From Blasia pusilla (taxonomy: Eukaryota), in assembly GCA_050084515.1 (NCBI GenBank), contig CM114271.1, positions 41,230,001-41,294,000 of the forward strand: 64,000 nucleotides of DNA, read 5' to 3'. The translations under genes and the position numbers were made by a program. The notes below the pieces were generated by a model that was given only the letters and a program-made list of their open reading frames with translations, was not told the DNA's origin and did not search any database. This document shows, piece after piece, positions 1,425 through 64,000 of the stretch. Numbering within the stretch: position 1 is the stretch's first letter; every line of letters begins with the position of its first letter.

Positions 1425-2300
1425 ATTTTACTATACGACAACGTGGCGAGATTGGTCTAGAGGTATCCTAAGTTCTTGTCGGTATCTGCAGTACGCAGAT
1501 ATCAGCATACACTACTGGCCGATATCTCTTTAGTAGGGCCGCATGATATGGATAGAGTTTGCACCATTCATTTGGTGATTACTCGATGGCCATATAAAGG
1601 TGGTTCATCAGCTGGCCGAGGGTTTGGATTGCAAGATCCGAGGTCAGGGATGTTTTGGGAGATGTTGTGAGTAGTACAACACTTGCAGAAGAGTCAGACA
1701 TGTTCTACGACGTACATTTTGGAGAACTTGCCATTGTTGGGAGACACTCGTGCATGTGTGATGACGAGTATGCATCAGCTCAAGTCTTGGTTAGGACCTG
1801 CTGTGTTGTTGGATGCAGCGAGAGTTGGATCACGCGCCCATCGTCCATCGCTGTGGTGGACAAACTTGATACCATAAGAGGTACTGAGTCGAGCATACAA
1901 TGGAGTTCAGAGAGCACTACATCTCATAGTGGATGCTATTCTTGGCTTAGGCCGTCGATCTCACGTAGTGATGCGGAATGATAGACTACCGTTGGCGATA
2001 GCCAATAGGGTAGGGGAGTTGAGGATAGCCTTACCTACGTTGGTGAGCTTCCCAACATCCCATGCCTTTCATAAGGGAGGGCTAGGCATGATTAGGGATG
2101 AGGTGACCCAAGCATTGGAGGAGCCTATGGCATATGAGCGCGAGCGCGCCATGGGGTTCGCTACGGGTACTACGGCAATGTCTGGTATGACTGAGGTATC
2201 ACGGAGACACGTATTGGGGTATGCAATGGACATCAACTGTCTCACATGGATAGTCAGCCTAGGTATGGCTGAGCAAAGACATATGCGAGTATCATCCATG
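1425..2300 (+). pseudogene. Retrotransposon-borne DNMT3-like cytosine-5 methyltransferase domain (copy A, motif I missing)
   Basis: One frame with stops gives HLVITRWPYKG (motif IV, PC changed to PY), YILENL (VI), DAARVGSRAHRPSLWWTNL (VIII), ERERAMGF (IX), RRHVLGYAMD (X). Colinear with copy C 59842-60799. Confidence 0.85.
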
Positions 2301-4892
2301 CCGTCACGTCCACCTATTGGAGCATTGCCTACACGGTCTATAAAGGCATTGGCTGGCGGCGAGACAAGGAGAGATAGGCATCCATGGACTTCATGAAATG
2401 TCGTTCGAGCGGAGAGTGCGAAGGTGGCCAGAATAGCACATGTTCATTTTTTGGATGTAGAGCATGGTGTAGGAGGTCAGAATGGAATGGTTGTCGCGGA
2501 GGTGGCTAGGGTTGCTACATAGCAACCAAAGCCAAAGGTTGCGTCCTCTCCGAGTGAGGTCAGAATGGAGACTTGGGAGCTTGTGATAAGTCTCAAGTTG
2601 ATAAGAGGAGAGCGAGGGCAAGTTCATAGATTTCTAAGAGGGCATGTCAATTGTTTTGCCTTCAATATGAGAGACTTGGATCCATTGAAGGGTCTCGGGA
2701 TACGGATTGAGTTGGCTAGTGATATGCCAATCTTTCGTTGACCTTACAGGTATTTTGATATGGAGCGAGCCTTGATTCAAAGCAGGAGTCAGGACTTGTT
2801 GGAGGCAAGACTTGAGAAGTTATCATATGGGGAGTATGCATCTGCCACAGTCATGCCAGCGAAGAAGAATATGTATGGCAATTGGACGGATAGGCAGATT
2901 TGCGGGGATTACCGACCTATCAACCGACAGCCAAAGTCGGATCAATATGCCATGCCTACTCTTGAGGAGATCTTTGATGCGGTAGGGCATGCAAAGATCT
3001 TCAGTACTTTAGATCTCCGTGTTGGCTATCATCAGCTTCCTGTCAGGTTGGAGGAGAGGGAGAAGACAACATTCTAGGGGATAGATCGATTCAGGAGAGA
3101 TTTCTTATATCAATGGCGGTTCCTACCATTTGGGTTGAAAAACGTGCCCCTGGAGTTTCAGACACTGATGGATAGGATTCTCGCTAGCTTGGATTTTGTA
3201 CGGTGTTACATAGATGATATTCTTATATTCAGTTCCACGGTTGAGGAGCATGAGCGACATCTGGAGGAGGTATTTCGGAGATTGTAGTTACATGGACTGA
3301 AGTTACATCCAGGCCAGTGCAAATTCTTTCAGGAGCAGATTGAGTACTTGGGACACAACATGTACCCGAGTGGGTTAGGTGTTCAGGAGACGAAGCTGAA
3401 GGCTATTACACAGATTCCACGCTCTACACATGTGAGTAGAGTGCGAGCATTTCTAGGACTGGAAAACTTCTATCGACGGTATGTCAAGGGTTTCAGTGCG
3501 ATCGCCAAGTCTTTGACCTTGTTGACGAGACTTGATCAAGTTTGGTTGTGGGGAGATGATCAGGAGCGAGCATTTCAAGAGCTCAAGGATAGGTTGACAT
3601 CCTCATCCATTTTACATTGATTGATTAGGGATCGCCCATTCCACTTATATACGGATTGGAGCATGTTGGGTCTATGAGTAGTGCTTACTTAGAGGGATGA
3701 CAAGGAGAGGGAGTTTGTTATGGCTTACGCGAGCCGATCGAACAACATTGCAAAGGCAAAGTACAGCTCCTACGAGGGAGAATGCTTGGTTACAGTGTGG
3801 GCCGTGGCACATTCCAGGTGTTATTTATTTGGAAACCCTTTCATACTTATCACTGATCATCAGTCGTTGAGGTGGTTGATGAAGTCCGACAAGCTTACGG
3901 AAAAGCTTTCCATGTGGGCTCTATTACTACACAAGTATGAGTTCGAGGTTGTTCACAGGCAAAGTTGGCTGAGCCAGGATGCAGATGGGTTGAATCGTAA
4001 CCTATGTCTGAGTCAGAAAGATGACACAAGAGCTCGATGGCACGGAGAGAGTGATGAGGAGATGGTGCCCAGTTGGCATGCATCTTTGTTGGTTGACTAT
4101 GGTAGGTGAGCCGTAAATGATGACTCCAGTGGTGGGATCAAATGATGAGTCTTTGGATCTGGAGGTCAGTGAGGAGGCAACATGTGGTCGAGATATCCAT
4201 GATGACGTGGAGGTTGTGGAGTTCTTGCGTATTGGCGTCATAGCGAGCATAGTGAGTGTTAGGGAACGGGAACGGGATTGGATCCTACAGAGAGCCAGGA
4301 GGTACAGGTGGGAGGGGACTCACATTTTGCGGGTATGGGGAGATGGTAGGATACGAGTGGTACCTCATCCTTCCAAGCGAGCACGTGTAGTGCGACATGC
4401 CCATAAGGAGTTGGAGGCATTTTGGAGTAAAGCGTACTTACAACTTACTCCAAGTTCAGTATTGGTGACGGGGCATGCATACTTGGGTATAGTAGTTTGT
4501 GGCCACATGTATGGTATGTAACCGAGTGCAAGAATCATTCAATGCTCACTCGAGTTATAGGTTTAGGTTATCGGTGGAGTTTAGACTTCGTAGGACCTTT
4601 GCCATTGACAAGGCGTCATCACAGGTACGTGTTAGTCATGGTGGAGCATTTCTCCAAGTGGATAGAGTTGGTGGCACTACCGGACAAGGCGAGTGAGGGA
4701 ACAGCTTATGCGTTTCTAGATCGTGTGCTCAGTCACTTTGGTGCACCGGCGGAGGTGTTGACTGACCAGGGTACCGAGTTCAGGTGAGAGTTTCAGGCCT
4801 TGTACGATCAAGCGTTGATATATCACCGCACCACGTTTAGAGATATCGTGAGGCAGATGGGTTGGCAAAGATAGTAGTACAGACAATGAAGA

Positions 4893-5204
4893 TATTGAAG
4901 ATTGAGTTACAGTCAAGCTCATGAGACACCTGAACTGCTACATTTGGTACTCACACGAAGTAGGGAAGCTTAATCTTGGCTAGCCATTTAAGCATGATTA
5001 TCTTAACTAGGGTTAGTTAATCACAATTAGTCTAACTCGAGACTAAGGTTAGGGTTAGGGTTGATTGCTTGTACATACCCTATATAATTGAGAAGGGGAT
5101 CAATCTCCACTCATTGTCTCGTTGCAAATTTTGTTCTCCATGGTGGTGTGTGTGTGTGTGAGAGTCGTTTTCCACCAATTATGTTTGTTTAGCAATTTTC
5201 CACA
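4893..5204 (+). repeat. Copia 5' LTR (TA...CA termini)
   Basis: TATTGAAGATTGAGTTACAG...TTTTCCACA, repeated at 10517 and followed directly by the PBS. Confidence 0.92.
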
Positions 5205-6292
5205 TGGTATTAGAGCGATAGGAGAACATTACTTGAAAATCTTTATGTTTGAAGAGATAAGAGAAGCAAGAGAGCGCATAATTTCAGTTTGGGAGAAGGA
5301 AACTTTTATTCAGAGCTTAGTGGATGTAGATTTCATGTAGAGCTTTGACGATGATAAAACTTTGGAGGCATTTTTAAGGCTTTCCCGGTCGATTTAGCTA
5401 TCTGGGTCCACGACAGTGAGAACGATGCCAAAGGCTGGTTCAAGCCGTCTTATAGAACTCATCGAGAGCTTTCCAACGCACCCACAATCGCTCGATTCTG
5501 ACATTCTGATGCTCCTCCAGTAGCAATTTCAGTATAGGAAAGTGCAATTAGTGAAGAAACGTTGTGCAGTTTGCTCTCTACAGGCCAATTTCGACTAGTT
5601 CTTTCATATAGTTTATCAATTTTGGCAAATTTCATGTCAAGTTTTGTGTAGGAGTGATGTATGCTTCAATTGGAGCAGTAGGAGAGCATGAAATTACGTT
5701 TTTGTGGGTGAAATTATTCGTCATGGAGTATTCCTCAACAGCAATCACAAGCGAGAAGCTAGATAAGCAAAATTACAATGTTTGGAATTTTTGAGTGAAA
5801 CAATTTTTCATGGATCAAGAACTATGGGAGCTTGTCACATGTGATGAGGCCAAGACAAAAGATGATTCAACAGACTTGCATGTTCGCACCTAAAACAATC
5901 GCACAAGGCAAGTAATCCACTACATTTCAATAACAATCAGTTCGCCAATGATAGGTCACATTCAAGATGTTGATATTCTGAAGGAGACCTGAGATGCATT
6001 GGAAAAGCTGATTAGGACATCTACAAAGGCTAGAAAGCTTCAATTGAAAGAGCAATTGAATGAAGTGAGAAAAGGATTGCAAAGCATCAATGATTATATT
6101 TTGAGTGCCAGAGATATTGTTGATCAGTTAAATAGCATTGGAGTGACAGTATAAGATGATGATCTGATTTTGTTCACTCTTCCAAAGAATTACAAATCTT
6201 TTGAGACCTCTCTTTCTGTAAGAGAGAAGTATCCAACCTTTCAAGAGTTAGTCCTTTTGTTAATCAGTGAAGAGATGCACCTAGTAGGTAGT

Positions 6293-6936
6293 TGTCGTGC
6301 GCATACACATCGCTATATAACATACATTGCTGTCATCGAATACACACACAAACACATACAATCCCATGCTAACTCATGGCATCCATACACAGAGACGAGG
6401 TGAGAAGTACCAAAATATCTCCAATAAAGTTAAATCCAATCTCTCTCTACATCATCTCACACCATAGCTCTCAAAGGTGTGCACTCTCTCTCATGTCAAA
6501 CCAAACCCATTCTCCTAATGAGAGGCTTGAGTTACACTCACAAGGCAAGGGACCATAGCTCCGCCTCCTTATGCCAAGAGGTTCAACAAAGAGAGAATAA
6601 GCTCTCAAACTCTCTCTCTTGGAGGTATATCCCCTTCCCTCTCCCAAGCCCTCTCAATGGTAACCTATGCTTGCAGGTCATCTCCTTGGCTCTTGACCTG
6701 CTATAGCGGATCAAGGACCACTTTCCAAAGTGTAAAGTCAACTATCCCCAACATGGAAACTTACCCGAAATAGTAAGTTTCTCTGTATGGCTCCAAATGA
6801 ACCGAAACAAAGGGAAAACCTGCTCTCTCAGGTTTCCCGGGGCCTCAACAGGTAATCCTCCACCTCCTGGGCATGTTCTCCACTACTCTGCAGACGCTCT
6901 GCTAGATCCCACTGATCTATCATAATAGTCGTGACA
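6293..6936 (-). mobile_element. Solo terminal unit (A+B) of the DNMT-Gypsy family inserted in the Copia gag
   Basis: Minus strand starts TGTCACGACT...GATAGATC, matching copy C 55406-~55900, and ends GATGTGTATGCGCACGACA, matching 11864, 12483 and 51580. Flanked by TAGT/TAGC. Confidence 0.88.
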
Positions 6937-9900
6937 TAGCGGTAGCTCGTATAGTCTGCAAGAGAGTGCGCTATTTGCAGGTTATGGATCAAACAAAGGC
7001 AGGGGTCGTGCCAGAAACTTCCCTGGTCGTGGTGGATATCAAACATATGGAGGAAGAGGCACTCAATATAACGTCACTCAATCAACTACAAACCAGTTCC
7101 ACACACAATCACAAGTTGGTGAAGGTGGAAACCGTTGGGGTCGAGGTCAACAATAGAGGGTCCCTGGATCTTCCAATTACTATCGGATAAAGGGTCACTA
7201 TGCAAAGTTTTGGTTCAAGAAGAAGGCAGATATGAGAACATGAGCCTTACAGCAACAAAACTATGTGGAGCAACAACACCAAGAGCAGTACCAAGAACAA
7301 CAACATTCACAAACGGAGTATCTCTTGGTCATGACTCATCATATGGGGGCAATGGTCAAGAAAGACTCTACATTAGATTGGTACATTGACTCTAGTGCAT
7401 CAAATCACATGACCTCACAAGCTAAATGATTCAATAGTTTGGAACGGGTGAAAGATCCTGCAATTATACTCACAGGAGATGACACTCAACATCATATCCC
7501 GCATACCGGTAAAGTTCTAATTGCATCAAATGGTCTTTGTGCTCTTGGAAATGTTCTCTATGTTTCTACCATTGCAAAAAACTTGATCTGTGTAGGACAT
7601 ATATTAGAACAGGGTTATCAAGTGAAGTTTGACGCAGATGGTTATTTCATTGAAATTATGGATGATCAGACTACGATAGCCAAAGGAACTAGATGTGGAA
7701 GAATGTTCAAATTAGATATTTCTATGCCAAAGATTCAAACAGCAATGTATGATCAAATCAGCCAACAAGTCACACATCTAAATGTGTGGCATAAAAGAAT
7801 TGGACATATGAATCTTCAAACATTATAAAGTCTTTCATCATCTAATATAGTAATAAGACTCCCTAAATTAGCGAGTCCTACTATGTTAGAGGTATGTCCT
7901 CCTTGCCAAATTGGAAAACAAGCTAGATTTCCTTTTCCAAAGCAAGGTAGAAGAGCATCTAGGATGTTGGAGTTGATCCACAATGATGTGTGGACATAAT
8001 CACCACATAGCCTTAGTGGTTGCCAGTATTTTGTTTCATTTATTGATGACTTCTCTAAGTATATATGAGTATACTTTCTGAAAGCCAAGTTAGAGCTATT
8101 CTCAATATTCCAAATATTTAGAGTTCTAGTAGAGAAGCAGATTGGAGAACATATTCTAAAATTGCGTTGTGATGGAGAAGGAGAGTATCTTTCAACAGAG
8201 TTTGATGACTATTTACGTCAAAATGGCATCCAACTTCAAGTGACTTGCTGTTACACTTCATAACAAAATGGAGTGGTTGAAAGGAAGAATCGACATATTG
8301 CTAAAGTGGCAAGAGCTATGTTGAATGAGATGAACATGCCTACGATGTATTGGGCAGAGGCTGTAGCATATACAATCTTCTTAATCAACACAACGTCAAC
8401 AGCAGGAGTTCATGATAAAACTCTATTTGAAGTCTTCATAGGAAGTAAACATGATTTTTCCTTCTTGAAAGTATTTAGCTGTATTTGTTATGCTTGTGTT
8501 CCTTTTGAGATACGTCATAAATTAGACCCCAAGTCTCAAAGATGTATCTTCATTGGCTATACATATGGCACTAAGGAATATAAGTGCTATATTCCATCCT
8601 CTAGACAACTTATTATTAGTCGGGATGTTGTCTTTGATTAGCTAAAGTCATGGTATGCTCCATGTGAGCCTATTCCACCTCTAAACTTGTCTGTTGAGGG
8701 GGAGAATATGAGTGTAAGCCACTAGACATTTTCTTTAACTTCCCCAAGTACTAGTGCAGGATTAGGAGAGGTTCTAGATTCATCAGTTAAATCTGTGAGT
8801 CCATGGACGGGAAGAGTATGTATTCAGTCTGTTGACACTAGTCAAAGCTCGAGTCAAGTGTCAAAGGCATCTTCCTCTGAACAACAACTTCGTAGATCAA
8901 GTAGAGTTACACATCCAGTTCACACATTCATAAATGAAGGTTTTCTTACGACACATCATGCATATATGATGACTACCCCTCAAGAATAGGAGCCAAGTTG
9001 TTTTGAAGGAGATGCAAGTAAAGTCGAATGGATTGAAGCTATGGAGGAAGAGCTTGTTGCATTAAGATATCAACAGATATGGAAGCTTGTTGATATGCCT
9101 TCCGGTGAGGAAGCTATTGGTTGCAAATGGGTTTACAAAATTAAGCGCAATCAAGATGGTACAATTAACAGATACGAAGCGAGATTGGTGGCTAATGGCT
9201 ATGCACAACAATATGGTATCGATTATGAGGAAATATTTAGCCTTATTGCAAAGATGGCGACTACGAGAAAAGTGGTTGCAATTGTAGTAAGTAAGAAGTG
9301 GAGATTACATCACACGGACGTCAAGAATGCCTTCTTGAATGGAGATCTATACGAGGTATATATGACTCAACCACCTAGATACGAGCATCCCAAGTTTCTA
9401 TTTTGCGTATGCAGGTTGAAAAAAGATCTATACATGCTCAAACAAGCTCCAAAAGCTTGGTATGGCAAGATTACATACGTCCTACAAGAGTTGAATTTTA
9501 GAGTATGTGATTCAGAATCCTCCTTATATGTCTGGAGACTCTCTCATTGTGTCGTATGTTGAAGATCTCTTGATTATTGGGAATACTGAAGAAATGGTAC
9601 AACAAGTCAAGCTTAAGTTACAAGCATAATTGGATATGAAGGACTTGGAAGAATTCAAGTACTTCCTTGATATTGAGTTTATCAAAGTTGGAGAGAGCAT
9701 GTGGTTACTACAATGACGATATGCTCTTCATATGCTTTCAAAATATGATATGATGGCTTGTAAGCCAATCTCTACACCGTTGGAGCAGAGTGTGAAGCTA
9801 AGAGTGGATGAAGGAGCGTTGCTTGCAGATTCTAAAATGTATATGCGCATGGTTGGAAGTTTGATCTATCTAACTATAACCATACCAGATTTGAGTTATG

Positions 9901-10516
9901 GTGTTGGCCTAGTGAGCCAGTTTATGCAAGCACCTTAAAAACCTCACCTTGATGCTGTGAGGAGGATTATGCGGTATGTGAAATTCTCTATTCAATTTGG
10001 GCTTCAATTTGAACCTTCTCCGAGTTTTCAATTACAGGGATTCACATATGCTGATTGGGTAGGAAGCGTGTCTGATCCACACTCCACATCTGGTTATTCA
10101 TTTATTTTAGGAAGCGCATCTATAAGTTGGGCTTCAAAGAAGCAACCTACAGTTGCTTGATCTTCAACAAAGGCTGCGTATAGAGGAGCAACCAATGCAG
10201 TATGTGAGGTGGTGTGGCTTCATCAATTACTTGTTGAGATTGATCCTAGTAACTTGGGACCTAGTGTAATATATGGAGATAATATTAGTACCATCAAACT
10301 TGTTTATAACCGTATGTTTCATGCTCGTACAAAACATGTTGAGATGCACTATCATTTTATCAGAGAGAAAGTGCTTGCAGGAGAAATTGATCTTGTGTAT
10401 ATAAGTACAGATCAGCAGATTACTTACATCTTTACAAAGGCATTGTCTAGAGATAAGTTTGAGATGTCTAGAAATGATTTAGGTGTTGGAGATATCGATA
10501 TGAGCTTGAGGGGGAG

Positions 10517-10916
<400 letters not shown>

Positions 10917-11506
10917 AAAGAGAGGATTGCGCAAGTATGGCTTGCAGCGGGGGAAATTGAGGGAGTGGAACCTCTAGTTGCCATGGTTGGCTATAGCTTA
11001 TCGCTTTAGTCGACACGCATCCTTGGCGTCATTTTCACCATACTTTTTGCTCTTTGGGAGAGAGCTAGATTTACCTACAACTATTCGACGTGACATAGCA
11101 GAGGTGTTAGATCTTGATGATCCAGATGTGTGGGTACAAGGGTGTTCTCAACGGATAGAGATTTTTTATAGAGTTATGTCCATGGCCTTTGAGAACTTAG
11201 CTATTGCTCAGCATAAGGATACATTGAGGTACGCGAAAATTCAAGGAGGATGATATCATCCAAGAATTATGAGGTTTCATCCTAGAGATTACATGTATTT
11301 ACAACAAGGGGCATCCACGAGGCTAGATGTCACTCTAGGGCGTACGATCGTACGTATGAGCGAGGTATTACCGATCGGAGTCCTCATGTTGGAGGGACGG
11401 GATGGTATGGTTTGGAAGGATCATGTGCGTAATTGTGCGCCATATCACCTTCTGAAGGTGGACGGGACAGAGGATACGAGCTCGGCAGTGCTACTTGCAT
11501 GCTTGA

Positions 11507-11650
11507 GGTGTATGTTGTGCACATATGCGAGGGTTGCAACCACCATGTTGGTATGTGATGGTTATTCTCGAGGGTGGCATATATCATGTTTGATCCCCCC
11601 CTCTTGATGTAGTTCCCACGGGACGATGGATATGTCCAAGATGTATATAG
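11507..11650 (+). pseudogene. PHD finger at the C-terminus of the Gypsy integrase (copy A)
   Basis: CMLC...MLVCDGYSRGWHISCLIPP[frameshift]LDVVPTGRWICPRC: C4HC3 spacing with the typical P.G.W.C..C tail; one Cys is mutated to Tyr. Confidence 0.85.
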
Positions 11651-11727
11651 GGTAGTAGGTCATGTCAGGGAGATGTGATATTTTCTATCTGCAGTTAGGG
11701 GGATCCAAGTGCCAGCTAGGGGGGCGC

Positions 11728-12483
11728 TTGTGTGATCTCCATGTATATGTTTGAGTTTATTTATGTTCATGTGTGGATCTACCCGTGTGTGGGGAAGATC
11801 AATGTTATGTTGTATGGATGTGACCAGCGATGTATGTTGTGTAGCGATGTGTATGCGCACGACAATTGCCACATCTAAGTAGCCGATAGGCCGAGATCTA
11901 TCGTTGATAGAGCCTTGGAGGCAGCGGGCTGTCTAGAGTGTAACTTTATCCCGAGGTGTCAGATCAGATTGAGGATAGGTCTGTTGTATCAGGAAGGTTA
12001 TTTTTTACAACATTCCTATTGAGGTCTTTCACAACCAAGTGACTTGTCGAGCAGGTCACCCGCCCTTGGTAACCTGTACGCACAGGTTACCAGAAGGATA
12101 GATATTTTTAGGAGAATAGCCTTTTGGCTCTTCCCAACCCTATATCAAGGAGGAAGATGGCTTTCCCAAGCCATCTTTCTCATTTTGGGCCGTTGGAGTA
12201 TCATTCTTGCTCGTGTGTGTGAGTTAGGACTAAGTGCTAGCATCTCGATTCCTTCATAGTAGGATGGACGCGGCTCGATATGTCGATGTAGATTGAAGAG
12301 TGGAGTTTTAGGCCAAGTGTGTCATTTTTACTACTCCTTATTTTTGTTGTGTAATCTCCATGTATATGTATGAGTTGATTTCTATACCTGTGTGGATCTA
12401 CCCGTGTATGGGGAAGATCGGTGTTGTGTGGTGTTGATGTGACCAACAATGTATGTTGTGTAGCGATGTGTATGCGGACGACA
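11728..12483 (+). repeat. 3' terminal block of copy A: B1 (11728-11864), AT spacer, A2 (11867-~12346), B2 (12347-12483)
   Basis: Two 137-bp direct repeats, TTGTGT(G/A)ATCTCC...GCG(C/G)ACGACA, flank a segment starting TGCCAC. Two G-tracts lie just before B1. Confidence 0.85.
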
Positions 12484-13311
12484 TTTGTCCTTACAAAACC
12501 CTCTAGTGATCAATTCCTTAGATTCACTCCATCTCTTGCTCGAATGGACAATGCATCAATAGAATCTCCATCCCTAATGCAAGATATTTAAAAAAAATCT
12601 CCTATCCTTCCCCTCCACTTGGAGAGAAATCCATGACCCTAATTTCCCTCTAGTGCAAATTGAGCCGGAATATAATCAAGCCTACTCCAACGCCTCTCTT
12701 GTCCATCCTCTGGGGTCTCACTTATGCGGAAGAGACATGTCACTTACAACAAAATATAGGGTTTTTTAATTGGATTTCGGGGAAGACTTATAAGGTCTTT
12801 TGGAAGAACTTAAGGGTATTTTTCTATTGATGGCAACACATAAAAAAAATAGGGCATTCTTAATTCGCCGAATGTACACGAAAGATGTTCAAGAGAGTAA
12901 GGGGGTTTTTTGGGGTTTTAATGGTGGGTATACCTATCAAATATGTATTGGTCCACGTGTCAATTCTATGAGAATTTTAGAGCTAGCCCAATAAATGAAA
13001 GGGATTTGTTGATTAGTTTTGAATTTTAAATGAATATCTAACCTAATGTGAGTACTTGGGCGGGAGACAATGAGGCCCACGTGTAAGAGGGGAAGGAATA
13101 CATCTTGATGGTGCACGGAATGTTGAACGAAGCTCGAGAGTACGATAATGCTAATCGTTTATAACACATTGGATGTATGTGCAATTCAACAAGCCCATGT
13201 TGTTGCCACATTCTAGTTGTTTTTGCTTAGAGGTCACGGCATGGTGTTGATTTCTTCAAATCTGTGCACGGGGTCTATGGTCGCAAGGCTACAACAAACC
13301 CTGCTGCAAGA

Positions 13312-13527
<216 letters not shown>

Positions 13528-14560: not shown

Positions 14561-14741
<181 letters not shown>

Positions 14742-15399
14742 TCTTACACTAGTATTTGTCATACCTTGTAACCATAGACCCCACACAAACATTTGAAGAA
14801 ATAAACATCAAGCCTTGATCTCTAAGCGAAAATAGCTAGAATGTGGTTGTAGCATGGGCTTGCTGAATTGCATGCGCACTTCAAAGTGTCCTAAACGATT
14901 TGCATTCCGGAGCTTCGTTCAACATTCTCTGCATCACGGAGCTGCATTCCTTCCCCTCTCACATGCGGGCATCATTATCTCCCGCCAACGTACTACATTA
15001 GGTTAGATATTCATTTCAAATTCAAAATTAATCAAAAAATCCATGTCATTTATTGGGCAAGGTCTAAAATTATCATAAAGTTGATACGTGGATCAATACA
15101 CGGTTGACACAAGTACCCACCATTTTAAACCCAAAAAACTCCCTTACTTTCTTGGACATCTTCCGTGTACACCTAGAGAATTAAGAATACCCTATTTTTT
15201 AATAAGTGTTGCCGTAAATTAAAAAATACCCTTAAGTTCTTCACAAAAGTTTATACGTCTTTCTCAAAATCCAATTTTAAAACCCTATATTTTATTGTAC
15301 ATGGTGTGTCTTTTTCTCGGAAGTGAGACCCCCGAGAAAAGAAGGTACAATTTCAGTTCGGGGCAAGGAAATTTCAGTTAGAACTCAATGGAGGAAGAC

Positions 15400-26572: not shown

Positions 26573-28833
26573 CTAAACATCTGAAACTGGTGCACTTGGA
26601 GAATCTTCTACAATTGCAGCCTCTAATATGGTGTCAACATCATTCACATATATCTCCGGGTTAGCATACACATACCTAAACTATGCAGAGTTTTTCCAAA
26701 GCACAACCGATTCAACCAATAGATCCTCATAGTCAACAATTTTCCCCTCCAAGGCTTTCCTAAGAACAACATCTAAATGCTTACTCAATAATCTATTACG
26801 ACACTTTGTCTTTATCATATTCTGCACAGAGAATGCTCTCTCACAAATCGCAGTACTCACGCATTGCACCGTAGCAATGTTGGTTAATACCAGAAAATTT
26901 GAGAACTTACATTGCAAGGATGGGCTCCAACTTACCATTTTCCAGAGATCTCGAAAGTTCCTGTCTTTCCATTCTGTTGAGGCCATGAGCTTAAATGACT
27001 GAAACTCTAGTTTCACAGCTCCTGAGTTCACAACAGCAGGTTGCAGGTTACCCGTGAGAGGAGCATCCCTTCCAAAATGTGCACAGAGATCATCTACATC
27101 CTTACAACCCCAACTGTTCAACCCTACTAGCCTAGAGGGCATATGCAGAGGATTCATAATCCTCATTGCACCAATTAGATTATTGTCCCTGAATCGATCA
27201 TGTAAGGCCGCACATAAATTCTCAGCATAACTCTTCTGGAAAGTTAGAACAGCCTGCAAATCCTTTCCAGTATGATCCCTCAACATTTCAATGCTGTGGT
27301 ACTTTCTACCCCTAATCTCAAATTGCAATCGTTTAAAATATCCTCCAGGGGATCCATAATCAGGTAAGAGATGATAACCTGTTGCCTCAGAGAATGTAGA
27401 AGCATTCAAGTCATGAATCTCCATCACAAAGTTCATTGTAATAGAGGCTACCTCAGAATTCAAAATACTACCAATGGTACTAACATCTACAAACTTATAT
27501 TGGAATACCTTACTCAAGTTAGCAAGTATAAACAAGATATCTGCCAAGAAGTACAATTGATAGATCATTTCAAATGATCTTAACTTGTTGTACATATTAG
27601 CAGCATTACCATCATTTTCGGAGCGGGGAATATCCCTGAAATATGTGAGGACAGACTCTAACGAGTCACACAAAGTAATCACGGCTTGCCATCGTGACAA
27701 CCAGCGAATTTTGTGATATCTTTTCATCACTCTCTGAGAATCATTCAACTTCTCCTGCAAAGCAACAAGCCCACACTTCCTCTTTGAAGATCTCATAAAA
27801 TATCTAGCTATAGCATTAAAGAGAGAGTCTATTTCTATAGATACATCTTTACACCCTGGTCCTTTGGCTGCTGTCAAAGCAGCAAGGTTGGTCCTATGTG
27901 CAACGCAATGTACAGAGAGCAAACAAAGGTTTACCTTATGCTTCAATTGACTTGCTACTCCATTCTGACTACCTACCATAGTGGAGGCTCCGTCAGATCC
28001 AAAAGGTACCATTTTAGAACTGTCTAGTCCAAAATCCTTGATCAACTCTATAAGATTGTTGGTAATTGCATTAGAACACTTCTCTGGACATTGCAACAAT
28101 CCTAGAAAAGAATTCTCCACTTGCCCCTCTTGTAAGTAAGTTGCAAATACCACCAGATGACCCGTTACTGAAATATTAGTATACTCATCTATCATTATCC
28201 CAAAGAAATGAGATTGTTGTACTTTTAAAAGAGTCCTTCTATGCAGAACCTGACTATTGTAGTAACACATCTTTGCACAACTCTTCTCATCCTGGTACAA
28301 AACTCAAGTAATGGGTGCATTTATCGACAGCAGCAACTTACACAGGTTCGGAAATTTGGCAAAAGCCATTGATTCCTTCGCAATAAAATAAGCACATTTA
28401 AACAATGTCAATAAGGCAGTGTCACAAGTACGATTAGAAGTGGCAATGGCCTTGGCCATGGACTTGTTTCCGACATTAGCAGCCCAAGAAAGCTTCATGT
28501 GCTCATTAGATTTACCATGATCAGTGCTATAAACTGTAAGGAAACCTTACAGTTTATAGCACCGTCCCTTACGAAAGAATTCTTGCCCTTCCCATGTCTA
28601 CAAACTTTACAAAATATTCTACCGGATTCTACATGGAACTCTATCCAATCAAATAAGGAGTACCAGACATCCTTCCAAGCCAATTGATTCTTCTCAATCT
28701 GGGCTTCAGAAGGAGAGCATGATCTGTTAACTTCATGTCCATCTGATGACTCTGAGCGGCTTCTATCCTCTGGAAGGTCATGGCCTACCTCTTTGTTTAA
28801 CATCTCGCTCATAGTTTGCTGTCTCTTAGCCAT
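26573..28833 (-). pseudogene. hAT transposase (ZNF862-like), disrupted
   Basis: N-terminal zinc finger (FDWIEF...IFCKVC), GIMIDE, FGSDGASTMVG, VHCVAH, IRW, STAICERAFS dimerisation region. Frameshift near 28497, stop at ~28304, probable premature stop at 26681. Confidence 0.88.
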
Positions 28834-42136: not shown

Positions 42137-43369
42137 TCACCACTCCATGGTGCCCACTCGGGGGCGTGTGGGCTCTTCCTCAGGTTCCATCTCTGGAAGA
42201 GGCTCTGGGGCTCTGAACTCCGGAGAGTCAAGATCTGCCAAGTTCTTCAAATCCACCATGGAAAGATCATCGAGTCTTCGGACGACAAGATCCGCAGCAC
42301 TAAGCTCGTACACAGGATGCTTCCCAGCAACAGCAACACATTTCATCAAGGCATCATGAGCCGCCTCAACGCTGGAGTTTGAGTTACCGAAAACAATGCA
42401 ACGCTCGGGTATGAAATTGAGGCGATCCGCAGCGTATTGAAACATTTCAGGATCGGGCTTTCCCCGATACGCATCTTCCGCGGAAATGACTTCATTGAAG
42501 AAGCCTTCCATCCCAACCGCCTCTATGGCCCTCTCAAGATACTTCCTGGGCCTAGTAGACGCGATAGCAATGGGAATATCGTATTTCTTCATGTTCGCCA
42601 CAAACTCCCTTGAACCCGGAACAAGCCTGTAAGTTCCCCCCTGCATCTCTTCGTAAAGCTCTTCTTTCCTCAAAGCCAGCCTCTTCATCTGACGGAAATC
42701 CCGGGTCCAGCAAAGCACTTCACTTAAGGCTTGTTCATTCTTCATCCCCTCCGCGCGTTTTAGGATGAAGGCTGGTGGTGGCCGCCTTCCTTCTTCTTCG
42801 GCCAGAGCCGTCCATGACTTCCTCTCCAAATCTGCATCGTCTTCGACAATTACCCCCTCCCACTCCAAAATGACCCCCAACCATCCGCATCCCATGCGAT
42901 GCTGACGAAGAAGTGGATTCTGTAAAGAAATATCATCGGCCCTATTTTCGGGGAATAAGGACTTGGGATTCAGTCCAGTTGCAAAGTAAGATACTTCCAG
43001 TGAGTCCTTCGTTTTGTCTTTGGGCGTCTGAGCCTCTTCTGTAACATCCATAGAGAAAGCACGCACGGAGCCCTCTATCTTCATCGTCCTTCTGTTCACG
43101 TAAATTACGATAGGAGGATAAGCTCTCGAACTTCGACTTCTCAGATCAAACTGTGATTGCAGCCCTACCTTTGAAGGGAAAGATCCAAGCGATAAACCCG
43201 AGACGGAACAGTGGCTCGAAGACATCCTAACACCTACGGCAATTGGAGATAAGGAGCACGCCTCAGAAATTCTAACGTTCGCCGAGCAGGACTCGACATT
43301 TGAAGCCTGACTTGAGGACAAGTGAGCCATGACTCCTTGCCCCAGGGTCGCCAGCCGCACAGCCATCAT
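42137..43369 (-). CDS. PYRP2: Plastid HAD-like phosphatase, 5-amino-6-(5-phospho-D-ribitylamino)uracil phosphatase family (riboflavin pathway)
   Basis: Intact 410-aa ORF from the ATG at 43369 (the track's 43393 start is non-ATG). Ser-rich transit-peptide-like N-terminus; RMGCGWLGVILEWEGVIVED, EEGRRPPPAFIL, GKPDPEMF, PERCIVFGNSN. Confidence 0.88.
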   Translation of the reverse strand: MMAVRLATLGQGVMAHLSSSQASNVESCSANVRISEACSLSPIAVGVRMSSSHCSVSGLSLGSFPSKVGLQSQFDLRSRSSRAYPPIVIYVNRRTMKIEGSVRAFSMDVTEEAQTPKDKTKDSLEVSYFATGLNPKSLFPENRADDISLQNPLLRQHRMGCGWLGVILEWEGVIVEDDADLERKSWTALAEEEGRRPPPAFILKRAEGMKNEQALSEVLCWTRDFRQMKRLALRKEELYEEMQGGTYRLVPGSREFVANMKKYDIPIAIASTRPRKYLERAIEAVGMEGFFNEVISAEDAYRGKPDPEMFQYAADRLNFIPERCIVFGNSNSSVEAAHDALMKCVAVAGKHPVYELSAADLVVRRLDDLSMVDLKNLADLDSPEFRAPEPLPEMEPEEEPTRPRVGTMEW

Positions 43370-44803
43370 GTTGTTAACAGAGATGATCCACAATTTGTGA
43401 AGTCGAAGCTACGACAGAGACCACCGGGCAGAAGGGGGACCAACAGTTCGATGAAGGATTGCTGTTGCAACACACGAGGAACTGATCCGAGTAAAAATCA
43501 CTTGAATGATCAATCTGACAGACACATAAAGGGTTCCAAGCAATCTTGTATATGACTAGGGCCTCAAACCACTGCACACGTTTGCACTACTTCTTGATAC
43601 CAGAAAATCTGAAACAAATCTGCTCAGCCTCTTCTCACTGCAAGCCGGCTGGGATAGATATGACCTCCGAAGTCGAAACGAAAAAGCTGTACCCCGAGTC
43701 TCCCCAAGCACCCCACAAACATGTGTCTACACAAGACAGGCGAAACAGGCAAGGACTTCTTATCCACTACCTGCACAAGCACGACACCCTCGCCGCGCGC
43801 ACAATGCTTGCTGTTGAAAAATGAACACAGGTGACCGCAACGCTTGAATCTCCGCGAAAATAACGCACTTGGTCAGATCGCTACGCGTAGAGAGACAAAA
43901 CATTCCCCGGCACCCGTCCCCGTCCTTCCTGCAAGCATGTGCACACACCACCAGAATGTCACCGTGAAGATCAAGGCACCCGACCTTCCCAGATGCGAAC
44001 ACAGGAGATGAAGACCTAGGACTAAAGACCAGTGAAACTTCGTGTGCGGGCGCTTGCCCACCAATTGATGACGGATGCGCGAGACAGACGGACCATGGAA
44101 CTCGCGAATAAGTCAAAATGCCGCCTCCCAAAAAGTAAAGTGATAGGCGTTTGGACCCCCAGGAGGAAAAACAAATATCACATCTCCAACTATTGAATTG
44201 AAACCTTAGAGCTAAAAGTGAAAATTTTCTTTTTTCACTTCCTAGGACGTGTCCAAGAGACGCTTTGATGAGAAATGAATCTGGACCTACAGAAGACGGC
44301 TGTGAAAGAAACCAAATTTGGAATTAGACGGTACTCTCGTGAAATTCAATAAATAGAATCCATAAAAGGGGAGAAATGTGACTTCAAGAACGAATTGACT
44401 TAAACTCGTAATTAACATTGAGGTCTTGCAAACCGGTCTACTATGATATGAAGGAGAAGGTTTGGCTACGTATTCTGACTTTCTGTTTTGGCATGGTTGA
44501 GTCCACGTACTAGGGCAAGTAATGGCCAACAACACATTGGAACTTATGATGGCCCTAAAATCTATATTATAATTTGAGGAGGGGGGTATTACTTTATTTA
44601 ATAGTTCCCATCCCGAATAAGTGAAGCCCTCCTTTAAAAGGAAGTCTCTTTTAAAAACTTGAAAATAGTTGATGAAATTGATATCCAAAACTTTGGTAAA
44701 TAAATCCAATGATGATGCTCGCCAATCTTTTTTTCATCTCAAATTTGGTAAATAACCTTTCCCATAGTATATTTGCCATTTCAATATTATTCCAAAGTTC
44801 ATT

Positions 44804-49600: not shown

Positions 49601-51284
49601 TGGATCCGATCTATATGTGAATCTTCCGTCCATATATTTTCATCGGCGGCGGGTTTCATATTCGTTTGGATGTTTTTTTTAAATAGTTTTTGAAATATTT
49701 TTAATTTAATATTTTAGAAAGTATAGCAGAACCTTAGAGAAATTCAAGAAATCATTAGACTAGGTCTTTTTAATTTATGTTAGTTTATGTTATAAAGTGA
49801 GTATAATTTTTGGATTTGCTGATACCCCGGTAATTGAGATTTTGTCAGAGAGTTCAACCTCTATCACTCCTTGGTAGCCCGCGAAGAAATTCCAACATTC
49901 GGTCTTGCAAGTGGAAGTCTTGAGTTGGGTCCCAACCAATCTCACCTTCCATAAGCAAGTTGATGAAGTCGCCAAACGCTAAATGGTTCCATTTCTCCTT
50001 AGGTGCATATCGTCTCCCTAGGAAGCCTCTTCCCAAATCCTCTACCAATAACCCCCAATTGCTCACCTAAACCAAAGTGTGGTTGTTAATTCTTCAAGGA
50101 GTGAACCAAATTGTTTTTTAGCTCAAACTTGAAACATGGTCCAAACACAAAACATGTTTAATCCCTTGTTCCAAGACTCAAGCGAATAGGACATAAAGGG
50201 CTCCTTCGTTCAAGTACTTCTAGGGTTCTCCGAGAAAACCCCACCTTTCCTAACCTCCATCTTAGGCCCTTGGTTGTAATCCATAATCTAATCGTGGTTT
50301 GCTTCTTGCAGACCCGTATTTGACTAGTTAACCTCCAAGATGACTTGGAGAAGTTTCTTGGCAGATTTTGCCTATCTTAATTTCCCCAAACTCATCTTGG
50401 AGCCTCAACCCGTATTTAGTGAGTCTCATGGCTACCGCCCATCTTAACTCCCACCATTGGGTGTCTCATGGTTTTCTTGCCTCCCTTTATTTTTCATGAC
50501 TAGCCTCATGGCGTCTCACCCATCATCACTACACCCTTCTTTCTTCCTATCTGTCCTTGACTCAAGTCTTAGCTCAAGGCGCTTCCGCCTATCTTGCCTC
50601 ATCCTCATCCTCATCCTCACGAGTAGCTATGCCCCATTTGTCTTAAGGTGAGTTTCAAGTTGCATGCCCATCTTGACTAAAGCTAGTGCTAAACCCTTGA
50701 CGATTCTCGCCGCCCATTCAAGTCTTTTGGATATAAATATAATATGTTTTAATTTTGATGGGTCACACAAAGTTATCTCTTCCTTTGATCCATGATCATG
50801 ACTTGCTTTCCGATCCCCTCTAGGTTGAGCACCTTAGACTTAGTTAATCGCAATGCATATAGGAATGGTGTAGCAAGATCTTTTTTTTGGTGAGGATAAC
50901 AAGATCATTTTTTTGGAAAAATTTTGGCATATTTTTTTTGGTATAGCACAAACTACAATCTTGCCTAACAAGTATACAACCCTCTTAAATTTTAATAACA
51001 TAAAACACAAAAAACATTGAATATTTTTTGTGTTATTTGGTTCTTATGTATATCTAATAAGTCTTACAGTCTAATATTATGGAAGTCTTCAAGTGGCACA
51101 TAGATCAAGTGGATAAAGTAAATATTGACTATTGCATAAAGGATTAGTCAATTATGGAAGAGGCTGGATAAGAGATTGGTTGTTTGATAAAGAGTAGTAG
51201 CATGAAGAGTGTGTAGGTTGAAGAAAATATTATGAGCACTTTGTAAAAAACTGCTAAAAAACATAACTCATGGGATACGATTTT

Positions 51285-51580
51285 TGGCGTTAGGAGCATC
51301 TCTCTTGCATGTGTGTGTGTGTAGGAATTACGGTGCAGGTGTTCGGATTCCTTCATAGCATAGGGCGGATGTGGCTTGATATGCGGATGTAGATTTAGGA
51401 GTTGAGTTTTAGGCCGGGTGAGTCATTTTTACTCTGATTTTGTTGTGCATTCTTGATGTATTTGTATGAGTTTATTTCTTATTTGTGTGTGAATCTACCC
51501 GTATGTTGGGAAGATCGATGTTGTGTGGTGTGGATGTGACCAACAATCTGTATTGTGGAGTGATGTGTATGCGCACGACA
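51285..51580 (+). repeat. Terminal fragment (end of A plus B) of the DNMT-Gypsy family
   Basis: Colinear with ~12185-12483 (GATTCCTTCATAG, GAGTTTTAGGCC, ATCTACCCGT, GGGAAGATCG); ends GTGTATGCGCACGACA. Confidence 0.85.
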
Positions 51581-53103
51581 TGACATAATTTGACCAGTGA
51601 AGCAAAATTGCTACTCTAATTTGTGACGCTACAAAGCAACAAGTGAAAATGAGGGTCCATAGCATCTAATGATGAGGTTTGCCAAAAATTGGAGTGCTTA
51701 ACATGAAGCACAAACTCAGATCCTCAAATGCTGTAAGATGAAAATGTGCAATGGAAGAGTAGCTCCCAAAAACTACCATTGGAGCATCGACTCTATTACT
51801 GATACTTGCAAGCTAAGTTTGGGATCATTATCTATATAAGATCTAATATCTTTGCAGAAATCTTTGGACTAAGCTTTGGCCTCTACTAACTTATGTTTTA
51901 CCTCAACTATAGTTGCCACACTTGACCAAGCATCCTCTTAAGCTACTCCTAAGATATTTTCAAAAACAAAAACCTTTGTAAAGACGCAAATACAATGTTG
52001 CTCTACTTCATCTAGGGCAGAAGAAATGGAATCATAAACATGAGCAACAATAGATCCATGTTTATGGTTGTTGCGCAAAGGAGTGTCTTCATAGTCATTG
52101 GATGTTGTAGGTGATGAATCTTGCCATGCACCAAAATTGAACCGTTATGGAGGTAGACCAAGTCGCATGCGTGCAACCTATATCAAAATAAGTAGCAGAA
52201 TTTAGTCATGCCTTAATATTGGTAATGAATAACAAAGTAAAGAGATAAGGCATGTTGGTGTAGAAGAGAAGTTAAAGAAGAAAAATATGAAGTAGGGATA
52301 AGCACAAAGAAGATTGTAATTGAAAAGACTCGCATTATAAGTTACTAGAATTACTAATAGTTATGAGAGGCGAGTGCATTTGATGCCTCAAAAGTAAAAG
52401 ATGGTCTAGCCTGATTCGACCAAATACACGACTAAAAAACTTTGTTTTGTTCCTCTTGGTCAAAGTGTTCTCTTTGAAGTCAACTTTCTTGAACTTTACG
52501 AACTTTTCTCTATACTTGGATGAAGGAATCTGAAATTAGAATTAGAGTGGAGTGAAGAAAAAATCACACAATTTAGAAATGGACGGGGTTATGGCAAATC
52601 AAGCATATCTGAAGGATGTGCATCCTTATTAATCCTTCAAAACTTGGAATCCCAAAGTTGGCTTTGACCAATCAAACTACGGATTTACCTTCCTATCACC
52701 CCGTGCTCCCAAAAAGTAGGTACCATGCCCAAGTCGTCCATATGTTTAATTTCGTTCTCTACTGAAAAGATGAACTTAGGCTTGAACTCTTCAAGTTGGG
52801 CATGAATGTCACTCAAAATCATGCTTGCGAAGTCTAAGTAACTAGTGACCACACCCTCATAATAGTTAGGGAATACAAGTATAGAGATTCTTAACCTCTA
52901 CGACAACTTGATCTTGGTGTTGTGGTGCTTTGATGGAATGGGCATGTGGCACAATGGTAGGATTAGGCTCTTGCTCATACCATGGAAAATCCTCAGGTTG
53001 ATGGTTGTTATGTGTTGCTCTTGGGCAACGACCTCTACTAGAGCTGTTGCATGAAGCCATGTCTTGATAGTAACTCCATGTTATGTCAGTCCCAAGAGTA
53101 AAC

Positions 53104-63700: not shown

Positions 63701-64000
63701 TGTTCTCAGAGGGTTGAGTTGTTTCGGAGAGTGATGCTCATGGCGTTCGAGAACTTGGCGATTGCGCAACATTGGGATACGTTGAGGTATGCGACTATTG
63801 AGGGTGGTGGTTATCGACCAATTATCCGGAGGTTTCATCAAGGAGATTATGTCTACTTGCAGCAGACGGCACCAACGACGTTGGATATGACTGCAAGGCG
63901 CACTATCTTGAGAGCGCGTGACGTTTTTCCATCAGGTGTTCTTTTGCTAGAGGGACGTGATCGTATGGTATGGAAGGAACATGTGCGTAATTGTACGCCA

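Follow-up and report, generated by a model that had tools for sequence, protein, structure and literature searches.

Split direct repeats are usually read as a sign that a retroelement uses a tyrosine recombinase and passes through a circular intermediate. In the liverwort Blasia pusilla we found this DIRS-like architecture on elements of a Gypsy lineage that has a DDE integrase and duplicates 4 bp of its target, within the 64,000-nucleotide window analysed here (contig CM114271.1, positions 41,230,001 to 41,294,000). How does such an element come by its ends? Our reading of the block at 11690-12483 of the window is that a retrotransposon of Ty3/gypsy type, now decayed, probably has its regular 3' end here, an element of the kind we call 'Gypsy-DNMT3'.

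This terminus belongs to copy A and lies on the forward strand. It opens with a polypurine tract (PPT) region at 11690-11727 that contains two G-runs, with AGGGGGGCGC at 11718-11727 directly adjoining B1, the internal copy of repeat B (11728-11864). B1 starts with TTGTGTG and ends in GCGCACGACA, and a 2-nt spacer, AT (11865-11866), sits between its CA end and the TG start of A2. A2 is the 3' copy of repeat A in this subfamily (11867-12346, starting TGCCAC), and palindromes lie within it at about 12063-12103 and 12143-12172. B2, the terminal copy of repeat B (12347-12483), closes the element with ...GACGACA, and the sequence beyond is single-copy. Alignment of B1 with B2 gives 87.6% identity across 137 nt (E about 6e-39). 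The PPT thus adjoins B1, not A2, and lies 139 nt before the latter. Raw reads from two public WGS runs span the B1|A2 joint, and at 12483 their coverage drops from about 1300 to about 0; neither the joint nor the element end is therefore an assembly artefact.

Other copies in the window show further parts of the same plan. The 3' end of copy B, on the reverse strand (53556-53990), consists of a PPT, B1 (53950 to 53830), the spacer GC (53829-53828) and an A2 that runs from 53827 and is truncated at about 53556. Copy C, on the forward strand, supplies a 5' end: its terminal repeat A1 (55406-55902) begins TGTCACG directly on the integrase region of copy B, is preceded by CTGT and has no B after it. 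This A1 is 81% identical to the solo unit over 512 nt, up to 55902, where the two diverge. The solo unit itself, A'+B' on the reverse strand (6293-6936), runs TGTCACG...GCACGACA and is inserted in a nested Copia element; its B tail is 78-82% identical to B1 and B2. In a paralogous Copia copy the sequences on its two sides run on into each other at 16304/16313, and the flanking 4-mers GCTA and ACTA agree at 3 of 4 positions, the paralog alignment being too diverged to settle an exact duplication. There is also a 5'-truncated fragment on the forward strand (51280-51581), comprising the last 165 nt or so of A plus B, with the end GCGCACGACA and 79% identity to 12182-12484, and a copy D on the reverse strand (about 25743 to 23987), too strongly decayed for its 3' end to be read.

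Much of this had been recognised in the initial annotation, and it stood up well. Each of the features it gave lies at the position named or within 1-3 nt of it, including the order B1 (11728-11864), A2, B2 in copy A, and the PPT does precede B1 rather than A2, in copy B as well as copy A. Copy B, said to show B1 then A2 independently, reads PPT-B1-GC-A2; copy C does begin with A alone and parts from the solo unit before B; and the solo unit is indeed A+B, between flanks contiguous in the paralog. The accompanying caveat, that the 5' and 3' ends stem from different subfamilies, was also justified. By eye A2 of copy A resembles its counterparts in copy C and the solo unit only over its first 40 nt or so, the rest being undetectable by BLAST, while the B tails of the two subfamilies match by BLAST over about 60 nt. 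As the 5' end of copy A and the 3' end of copy C fall outside the window, the full architecture was pieced together across subfamilies and with the help of moss-type relatives.

Sequencing reads allowed a further look at the solo/C-type subfamily. Among the matches listed, at least 3090 reads (2000+1090) of run X9 had loose ends on the B tail, whose consensus (agreement about 0.4) was 2-3 nt followed by the A start of the solo/C type. Likewise among the matches listed, at least 23 X2 contigs shared a loose end at 11876, with a 30-nt consensus (agreement 0.74) equal to copy C 55417-55446. Read-depth ratios of B1:A2:B2 were discarded as a means of choosing between models, the B tail being conserved across subfamilies (depth 4640 versus about 1000) and A not.

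The relatives comprise 80 metagenome loci in 63 clusters. To count B tails and A starts we used BLAST mapping in place of a motif-only count, which had given 281 and 277, many by chance, with 4 joints. Two loci, L042 and L056, each carry the whole series A1, internal region, B1, 2 nt, A2, B2. The identity between A1 and A2 is 92.1% in L042 and 88.4% in L056, and that between B1 and B2 is 93.8% and 88.2%; as the two values are similar within each copy, both repeat pairs date from insertion. At all 19 unique 5' ends A passes directly into the leader with no B after it. Of the 16 unique PPT-B1 3' ends, 5 continue as 2 nt-A(-B) and 11 run into the flank as B alone, on short-read metagenome contigs whose assembly may have skipped a B-A-B loop. 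One B-only locus, L052, has both flanks and a TGTG duplication in common with L064/L065, which carry B-A-B. These are therefore one insertion in two forms, and B-only copies can arise by B1xB2 deletion.

The joints are equally regular. B1 is directly preceded by the AGCTAGGGGGG motif in copy B, as it is in 19 of 19 listed moss-type loci (16 unique). The B1|A2 joint is CA + 2 nt + TG in all seven copies, liverwort and moss, with the spacers GC in L003, L042 and copy B, AC in L027 and L056, and AT in L065 and copy A. At the A2|B2 joint the last nucleotide of A is followed by 1 nt and then by the first nucleotide after the PPT (4 of 4 moss copies). Target duplications of 4 bp flank the A-start and the B-end; among 10 complete copies they are perfect in 6, probable in 1, matched at 3 of 4 positions in 2 and at 2 of 4 in 1. 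The termini, TGTCA(T/C)G...CGACA, have the TG...CA ends of Ty3/gypsy elements, and the duplication length agrees with the 4-5 bp of that group. The two identical LTRs of that group, one per end, were not found, the 5' repeat being A only in 19 of 19.

The normal integrated form is thus very probably A1, a putative self-priming PBS, the coding region, PPT, B1, 2 nt, A2 and B2. The A1...B1-A2-B2 reading first made on copy A is borne out by the full-length L042 and L056 and by the 19 A-only 5' ends. The arrangement named beforehand as its refutation, a normal PBS together with an A+B LTR at each end, was found in no copy. That arrangement underlies one alternative, a canonical LTR element in which B1 is a local duplication and copy C has lost B and its PBS. 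A solo unit made of A+B with TG...CA ends would suit it, and so would the fact that the window's two element ends come from different subfamilies. We consider it very improbable, since B follows A at none of the 19 unique 5' ends of the relatives, B1 with its 2-nt spacer recurs in seven independent copies from liverwort and moss, and B1/B2 identity equals A1/A2 identity within copies. The A/leader junction of copy C, moreover, is intact and functional-looking, with 16 nt of complementarity at the distance seen in moss copies.

The position of the PPT next to B1, and a B that begins T-TG, could instead suggest that the LTR is B-A-B at both ends, with the solo unit and copy C drawn from a family without the first B. 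B was found upstream of A at 0 of 19 unique 5' ends, the 4-bp target duplications lie at the A-start and not the B-start, and the reads and contigs show the joint of B-tail to A-start in the solo/C-type subfamily too. This makes B-A-B LTRs extremely unlikely, and we retain the split arrangement with A alone at the 5' end.

The coding region identifies the lineage. The first part of the copy A internal region (1473-4892, forward strand), delimited by self-BLAST to copy C, contains a decayed DNMT-homologous stretch, RT, RNase H and the start of integrase (Pfam RT_RNaseH 6e-20; rve 9.8e-13, 48.7 bits). A Copia element (4893-10917; RVT_2 8e-44) splits it from the last part (10918-11689, forward strand), which holds the C-terminal region of integrase and a weak PHD-like match. 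In copy C a DNMT3-like C5 cytosine methyltransferase domain lies in pol at 59851-60796 (forward strand), in three frame pieces. PF00145 matches it at 60037-60450 (3.6e-12) with motif pieces on both sides, and motifs I (FGG), IV (PCQ), VI (ENV) and IX/X can be made out by eye. RT, RNase H and the start of integrase follow at 61305-64000 on the same strand and run past the window end (RT_RNaseH 5.1e-24; rve 28.5 bits, under the 32.6 cut-off).

The relatives fill in this picture. Pieces of L042 match DNMT (20.4 bits, below the Pfam cut-off of 22), RVT_1, RNase H, rve (46.1 bits) and PHD. P0126, a relative with the full DNMT domain, has DNMT3A/3B chains as its best matches (6e-12), and the intact relative P0147 carries RT, RH, DNMT, H2C2, rve and PHD within one protein, in the order RT-RH-DNMT-IN. 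The coding order of the element is gag, PR, DNMT3-like domain, RT, RNase H, DDE integrase and PHD finger, and its PR-RT-RNase H-integrase succession with an rve core is that of Ty3/gypsy. Relatives are present in the Marchantia, Calypogeia and Sphagnum protein sets as well as in the moss-type contigs.

Could the repeats nevertheless betray a tyrosine-recombinase element of the DIRS, PAT or Ngaro type, or a chimera of one with Gypsy, whose circle integrates by site-specific recombination? The order A1-int-B1-A2-B2 is, after all, described as the hallmark of PAT, Ngaro and VIPER (PMC4157794) and of SymbioDIRS-Dnmt3 (PMC5890265). The integrase speaks firmly against it. The DDE type proposed for copy A from its letters is confirmed by rve cores above the Pfam cut-off in copy A (48.7 bits) and L042 (46.1 bits), and P0147 has H2C2 together with rve. 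No scanned piece or protein, in a scan that covered all but some small gag ORFs, matched Phage_integrase, the tyrosine recombinase. Tyrosine-recombinase elements are not known to duplicate their target sites on insertion, and the 4-bp duplications, perfect in 6 of the 10 complete copies, indicate a staggered, DDE-type strand transfer. A tyrosine-recombinase origin is accordingly most improbable, and the element is better regarded as a Gypsy element with split repeats.

Such an architecture is not unprecedented. It was reported by de Mendoza et al. in 2018 for KnitGypsy-Dnmt3 of Klebsormidium nitens, described in the legend to Fig. 4c of PMC5890265 as having Gypsy domains with repeats as in a DIRS retrotransposon. 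The initial annotation was right that split termini typify tyrosine-recombinase elements, but its addition that they are not a Gypsy feature makes them newer than that legend allows. Compared by description, our element and KnitGypsy-Dnmt3 share LTR-Gypsy domains, a Dnmt3-type DNMT inside pol and A-coding-B-A-B repeats. They differ in host, a green alga in one case and a liverwort, with relatives in other bryophytes, in the other; the DNMT upstream of RT and the PHD finger after integrase are further differences. The main text of PMC5890265 gives no details of the PBS, PPT or target duplications of KnitGypsy-Dnmt3. Within the library covered by our literature search, which took in that paper without its supplements, there was no earlier account of this kind of element in bryophytes.

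The resemblance to PAT, TOC, Ngaro, VIPER and SymbioDIRS-Dnmt3 lies in the repeat order A1-internal-B1-A2-B2. These carry a tyrosine recombinase, whereas our element has an integrase of the rve (DDE) type and duplicates 4 bp of its target. SymbioDIRS-Dnmt3 likewise carries a DNMT3 domain; classic DIRS and PAT elements are described as having a Dam-like methyltransferase, not a C5 one (PMC5890265).

If the element is a Gypsy element, where is its primer? No tRNA-type (TGG-type) PBS adjoins A in the copies examined, and a tRNA scan of the 64-kb window returned no tRNA genes. A lack of any clear tRNA PBS, and with it non-canonical priming, had been suspected, and what we found adjoining the A end is self-complementarity. 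In copy C a putative self-primer and R start within A1 (55726-55741, forward strand) is a 16-nt perfect complement of a putative self-priming PBS at 55902-55917, on the same strand and adjoining the end of A1, in the same geometry as in moss-type copies. L042 has 17 nt of complementarity against 16 nt in copy C, and in both the primer lies 174-176 nt upstream of the A end. The primer and PBS sequences themselves differ between the two, so that the pairing covaries.

Chance and folding were both considered. No complement to the initial 12 nt of 55726-55741 arose in any of 5000 shuffles of A. The minimum-free-energy fold of copy C pairs this segment with 55902-55917, and folds pair both segments with z = -3.4 and -3.2. 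Across the relatives the best complement falls at the expected site in 14 of 19 loci (174-175 nt upstream in 13, 185 nt in L051), where 10-14 of 14 positions match against a control mean of about 8.3. The other five show no good complementarity at that site, which may reflect the decay of all copies.

The seemingly missing PBS is thus, judged from sequence, a putative Tf1-like self-primer, and this is new here. Elements of the Tf1/sushi group and plant Tcn1 chromoviruses self-prime, and self-priming elements occur in mosses and club-mosses, according to Neumann et al. 2019 (PMC6317226). As outlined there, they share with our element the absence of a tRNA-type PBS and a 5' repeat segment complementary to the sequence adjoining the repeat. 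Tf1 and Tcn1 themselves are known for ordinary identical LTRs and for a chromodomain where our element has a PHD finger, and we know of no DNMT in either.

The positions of the putative self-primer and the PPT would fix the ends made by reverse transcriptase, and the integrated ends are different ones. With a putative PBS at the A end and the PPT where B begins, reverse transcription would define B-xx-A as the LTR. We suggest that transcription begins within A, at the sequence that can pair with the 16-17 nt adjoining the end of A1, and that the transcript would self-prime minus-strand synthesis as in Tf1, with the plus strand primed at the PPT next to B1. The repeat made in this way would be B-xx-A and not A-B, and the integrated copy would be a circular permutation of the product. 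As integrated copies would be permuted relative to B-xx-A, the two cDNA ends would be joined to each other, forming what is seen as the A2|B2 joint. Integrase would then act within the repeat, at the near-palindromic ...CA-xx-TG... site, akin to an LTR-LTR circle junction. After insertion, B1xB2 deletion would give A-int-B copies and A1xA2 deletion solo A-B units.

Integrases of retroviruses (foamy virus, HIV-1) cut palindromic LTR-LTR circle junctions, as a side pathway. The cleavage we propose would resemble theirs in that a DDE integrase would act on an internal ...CA-nn-TG... palindrome. It would differ in being obligatory in our element. We put the permutation and junction cleavage forward tentatively, at just under even confidence. 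Junction cleavage also predicts an alternative permutation, A-B-xx-A-int-B, and this was seen at none of the 19 5' ends. Fast AxA deletion could be the reason: symmetric opening of the circle should yield a second product with 340-bp repeats 115 bp apart, which should quickly collapse to A-int-B.

The same architecture might be reached with no circle. Reverse transcriptase could directly make a linear A...B-xx-A-B cDNA, by an end-to-end template switch from the A end to the B start or from a second priming site, and integrase would use its terminal TG...CA. Such a route would account for an extension at the right end only and for the lack of the alternative permutation (0 of 19), and the TG...CA termini, with inverted-repeat similarity (TGTCATG versus TGTCGTG), look like ordinary integrase substrates. 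With a putative PBS at the A end and a PPT at the start of B, though, the standard two-jump scheme yields B-xx-A repeats whose outer ends are B-start and A-end, and a primer site is absent both downstream of B2 and directly upstream of A2. We therefore think the linear route unlikely, if a good deal less so than the alternatives above, and continue with the permutation and junction cleavage. We presume an unusual strand-transfer or integration step.

Beside the putative self-primer, what appears to be new is thus B-xx-A as the LTR defined by reverse transcriptase and, by implication, the joining of the cDNA ends followed by cutting at CA-xx-TG. It is conceivable, though we hold this with still less assurance than the cleavage mechanism itself, that these elements are an LTR retrotransposon lineage that obligatorily integrates via a circle-junction-type substrate and has apparently been kept in liverworts and mosses.

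The lineage abounds in the genome of a liverwort and occurs in other bryophytes, and the finding bears on how such genomes are annotated. Programs that look for two identical LTRs plus a tRNA PBS will probably overlook these elements, or misplace their bounds, along with their A-int-B and A-B derivatives. Their DNMT3 domains may be annotated as host genes, and several Marchantia gene models matched by the DNMT piece look like such miscalls. Mp_4g09160 is one Marchantia polymorpha gene model that points to a copy. A remark in a figure legend of 2018 now becomes a testable question, how a DDE integrase obtains TG...CA ends from a permuted cDNA. If our proposal is true, these Gypsy elements would have converged with DIRS and Ngaro, yet with an integrase and target duplications.

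Copy A, a decayed Gypsy-type element, ends on the forward strand in B1 (11728-11864, 3' end GCGCACGACA), a two-nucleotide spacer (AT), A2 (11867-12346, beginning TGCCAC) and B2 (12347-12483, ending GACGACA). B1 matches B2 at 87.6% over 137 nt, and a polypurine tract (PPT), a G-run at 11718-11727, adjoins B1. Copy B, on the reverse strand, repeats this pattern, with B1 from 53950 to 53830 and A2 from 53827 until cut off near 53556, a PPT as in copy A and the spacer GC. Copy C opens directly with A at 55406 (TGTCACG), abutting the integrase region of copy B. It matches the solo unit at 81% as far as 55902 and diverges beyond; this lone A+B runs from 6936 to 6293 on the reverse strand, and the sequences on either side of it adjoin each other in a paralogous Copia copy (16304/16313). 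These three arrangements are as the initial annotation had described them. Its caveat, that the 5' and 3' ends come from different subfamilies, also holds: A2 of copy A can be aligned with A of copy C and the solo unit only over the first ~40 nt (by eye) and the B tail, and by this comparison they are different subfamilies. The window holds copy A without its 5' end and copy C without its 3' end.

Raw reads from the same organism (two WGS runs) span the B1/A2 joint of copy A and fall to a depth of about zero past 12483, showing that the structure is real rather than a product of chance or assembly. A2 of copy A also contains a palindrome (12063-12103, TAACCTGT..ACAGGTTA), and hundreds of 'opposite strands' joints occur at 12063/12103 in the raw reads. 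Just 3' of copy A lies an inverted repeat (12708-13490 and 14563-15336, 83.6% over 786 nt) whose inner ends are perfect microsatellites, (CT)105 at 13315-13524 and (AG)88 at 14563-14738.

Metagenome contigs scanned with the DNA methyltransferase (DNMT) alignment yielded 80 loci, which fall into 63 clusters. The moss-type relative L042 has, in order, A1 (1679-2017), the leader, the coding region, PPT, B1, GC, A2 and B2, ending at 10805, with 92.1% identity between A1 and A2 and 93.8% between B1 and B2. L056 has the same order, with 88.4% and 88.2%. As the A and B pairs have decayed equally in both elements, each pair was evidently identical at insertion, as LTRs are. Ordinary A+B LTRs are ruled out, as the leader directly follows A in all 19 unique 5' ends; none has A+B, and no copy seen carries such LTRs at both ends. 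Nor can B-A-B be the LTR, since B lies upstream of A in none of the 19. The 4-bp target duplications at A-start and B-end in 10 complete copies were perfect in six, probable in one, matched at 3/4 in two and at 2/4 in one.

Sixteen unique 3' ends have PPT-B1. In 11 B1 runs into flank, and in five it is followed by 2 nt and A (four are A-B, and one stops at the contig end). L052 (B only) and L064/L065 (B-A-B) have both flanks and a TGTG duplication in common and are thus two forms of one insertion shared by two related genomes or haplotypes. Their sequences bear the apparent signature of B1xB2 deletion after insertion or, possibly, of assembly skipping in L052. The element body is ~91-92% identical and the downstream flank 95-99%; the element seems to have mutated faster than its flank. 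In the public WGS run X9, at least 3090 reads ending in the B tail (2000+1090) have loose ends, and their consensus (agreement ~0.4) enters the solo/C-type A start after 2-3 nt. Another loose end, at 11876 and common to 23 contigs of run X2, continues for 30 nt (agreement 0.74) as the A start of copy C. B/A joints thus occur in the copy C subfamily too.

Copy A encodes reverse transcriptase (RT), RNase H and an rve integrase core (48.7 bits), which is split by a nested Copia (4893-10917; RVT_2, 8e-44). The Copia LTRs (~4893-5204 and 10517-10916) are 90-95% alike, the 3' one holding a (GT)104 microsatellite at 10668-10876. Copy C has gag with a zinc knuckle and a protease remnant (both by eye), RT, RNase H and the start of integrase. 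Between its protease and RT lies a DNMT3-like C5 cytosine methyltransferase domain (59851-60796, forward strand; Pfam 3.6e-12), whole but frame-broken; a decayed homolog of this domain lies at 1473-2273. The best matches of a full-domain relative are DNMT3A/3B chains, and the DNMT piece as query found gag-DNMT-RT proteins of Marchantia, Calypogeia and Sphagnum. In Marchantia polymorpha, Calypogeia fissa and Sphagnum, annotation treats such relatives as ordinary gene models. Pieces of L042 match DNMT (weakly), RVT_1, RNase H, rve (46.1 bits) and PHD. The PHD finger is weak in the window (11254-11604, forward strand, E 0.01), clear in L042 (9722-10069, 4.4e-10) and clear too in the protein relative P0147; it lies 3' of the integrase, where chromoviruses have a chromodomain. 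In P0147 (1999 aa), intact and more distant, RT is followed by RNase H, DNMT, integrase and PHD. Its DNMT thus lies between RNase H and integrase, whereas that of the bryophyte elements precedes RT, which suggests rearrangement or a second acquisition. Every copy examined is decayed.

The split repeats would be familiar on a tyrosine-recombinase element, but that reading is rejected: the rve core was found, and no such recombinase was seen in any piece or relative scanned. The full order in L042 and L056, the rve core and the 4-bp duplications support the reading first proposed, a split-repeat Gypsy with a DDE integrase.

Elsewhere in the window, an unbroken 423-aa ORF (42140-43408, reverse strand) encodes a HAD-type phosphatase, with 5-amino-6-(5-phospho-D-ribitylamino)uracil phosphatase among its best named matches. 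Over 97-99% of its own length it shares ~70% identity with liverwort proteins, so the gene is apparently intronless here. Judged by this flanking gene, the host is a liverwort-like bryophyte. A 540-aa open frame (26684-28303, reverse strand) matches DUF4371 below threshold (26.2 bits, cut-off 32.1) and may be a transposase-related remnant.

In L042 a 17-nt stretch starting at the final base of A1 is perfectly complementary to a site in A1 ~175 nt upstream. Copy C has an equally spaced pair of different sequence, with 55902-55917 perfectly complementary to 55726-55741; a complement to the initial 12 nt of this stretch appeared in none of 5000 shuffles of A. For the 14 bases that open the leader, the best complement falls on the expected A site in 14 of 19 moss-type loci (174-175 nt upstream of the A end in 13, 185 nt in L051), with 10-14 of 14 matches against a mean of ~8.3 and a maximum of 12 for control 14-mers; the other five show no good complementarity there. 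Both segments are paired in minimum-energy folds (z ~ -3.3). In sequence, this complementarity between the A1 interior and the A end matches the self-priming arrangement of Tf1, and a putative self-priming site would explain why copy C has no clear tRNA primer-binding site, as had been remarked. Self-priming has likewise been predicted for Tcn1 chromoviruses of mosses and club-mosses (PMC6317226). A palindrome also lies at the putative primer site of the moss and copy C elements, at positions different from 12063-12103. A conserved TGGGGG-containing motif 35-45 nt into the leader (window ~55943-55960, L042 ~2052-2070) is too far from the A end to be the primer-binding site. In both window copies, and in each of the 19 moss-type loci listed (16 of them unique), the PPT adjoins the first base of B1, not A2, as had been noted.

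If the minus strand began at the A end and the plus strand at the B start, the standard two-jump scheme would give DNA with a B-xx-A repeat (xx being 2 nt) and with B-start and A-end as its ends. The termini of integrated copies are, instead, A-start (TGTCA..) and B-end (..CGACA), a pair that is inverted-repeat-like. The B1/A2 joint is CA + 2 nt + TG in 7/7 copies, and in L042 a perfect 16-nt palindrome. In 4/4 moss copies the A2/B2 joint has exactly one base between the final base of A and the one that directly follows the PPT, as if the two predicted cDNA ends had been joined together. From this joint anatomy and the primer positions we infer that the integrated A-int-B-xx-A-B (int, internal region) is the predicted cDNA in circularly permuted form. 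The cDNA ends would be joined, in a circle or after cleavage, and integrase would act on CA-xx-TG. None of the 19 5' ends shows A-B-xx-A-int-B, the alternative product; this is compatible with permutation, as its 340-bp repeats, 115 bp apart, would be expected to delete quickly. That reverse transcriptase directly makes a linear A...B-A-B cDNA is a live alternative.

KnitGypsy-Dnmt3 of Klebsormidium was described, as combining Gypsy domains with repeats of the DIRS type, by de Mendoza et al. 2018 (PMC5890265), the main text of which makes no mention of bryophyte elements, and a 2026 preprint uses the label 'streptophytes (Gypsy-DNMT3)'. The literature searched yielded no paper on bryophyte elements of this kind. 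By their structure, the elements of liverworts and other bryophytes belong to the kind already noted in Klebsormidium. To this we add the site of the PPT, a putative self-primer, target duplications of 4 bp, the anatomy of the joints and derivatives formed by deletion, which together pose the integration mechanism as a sharp question.
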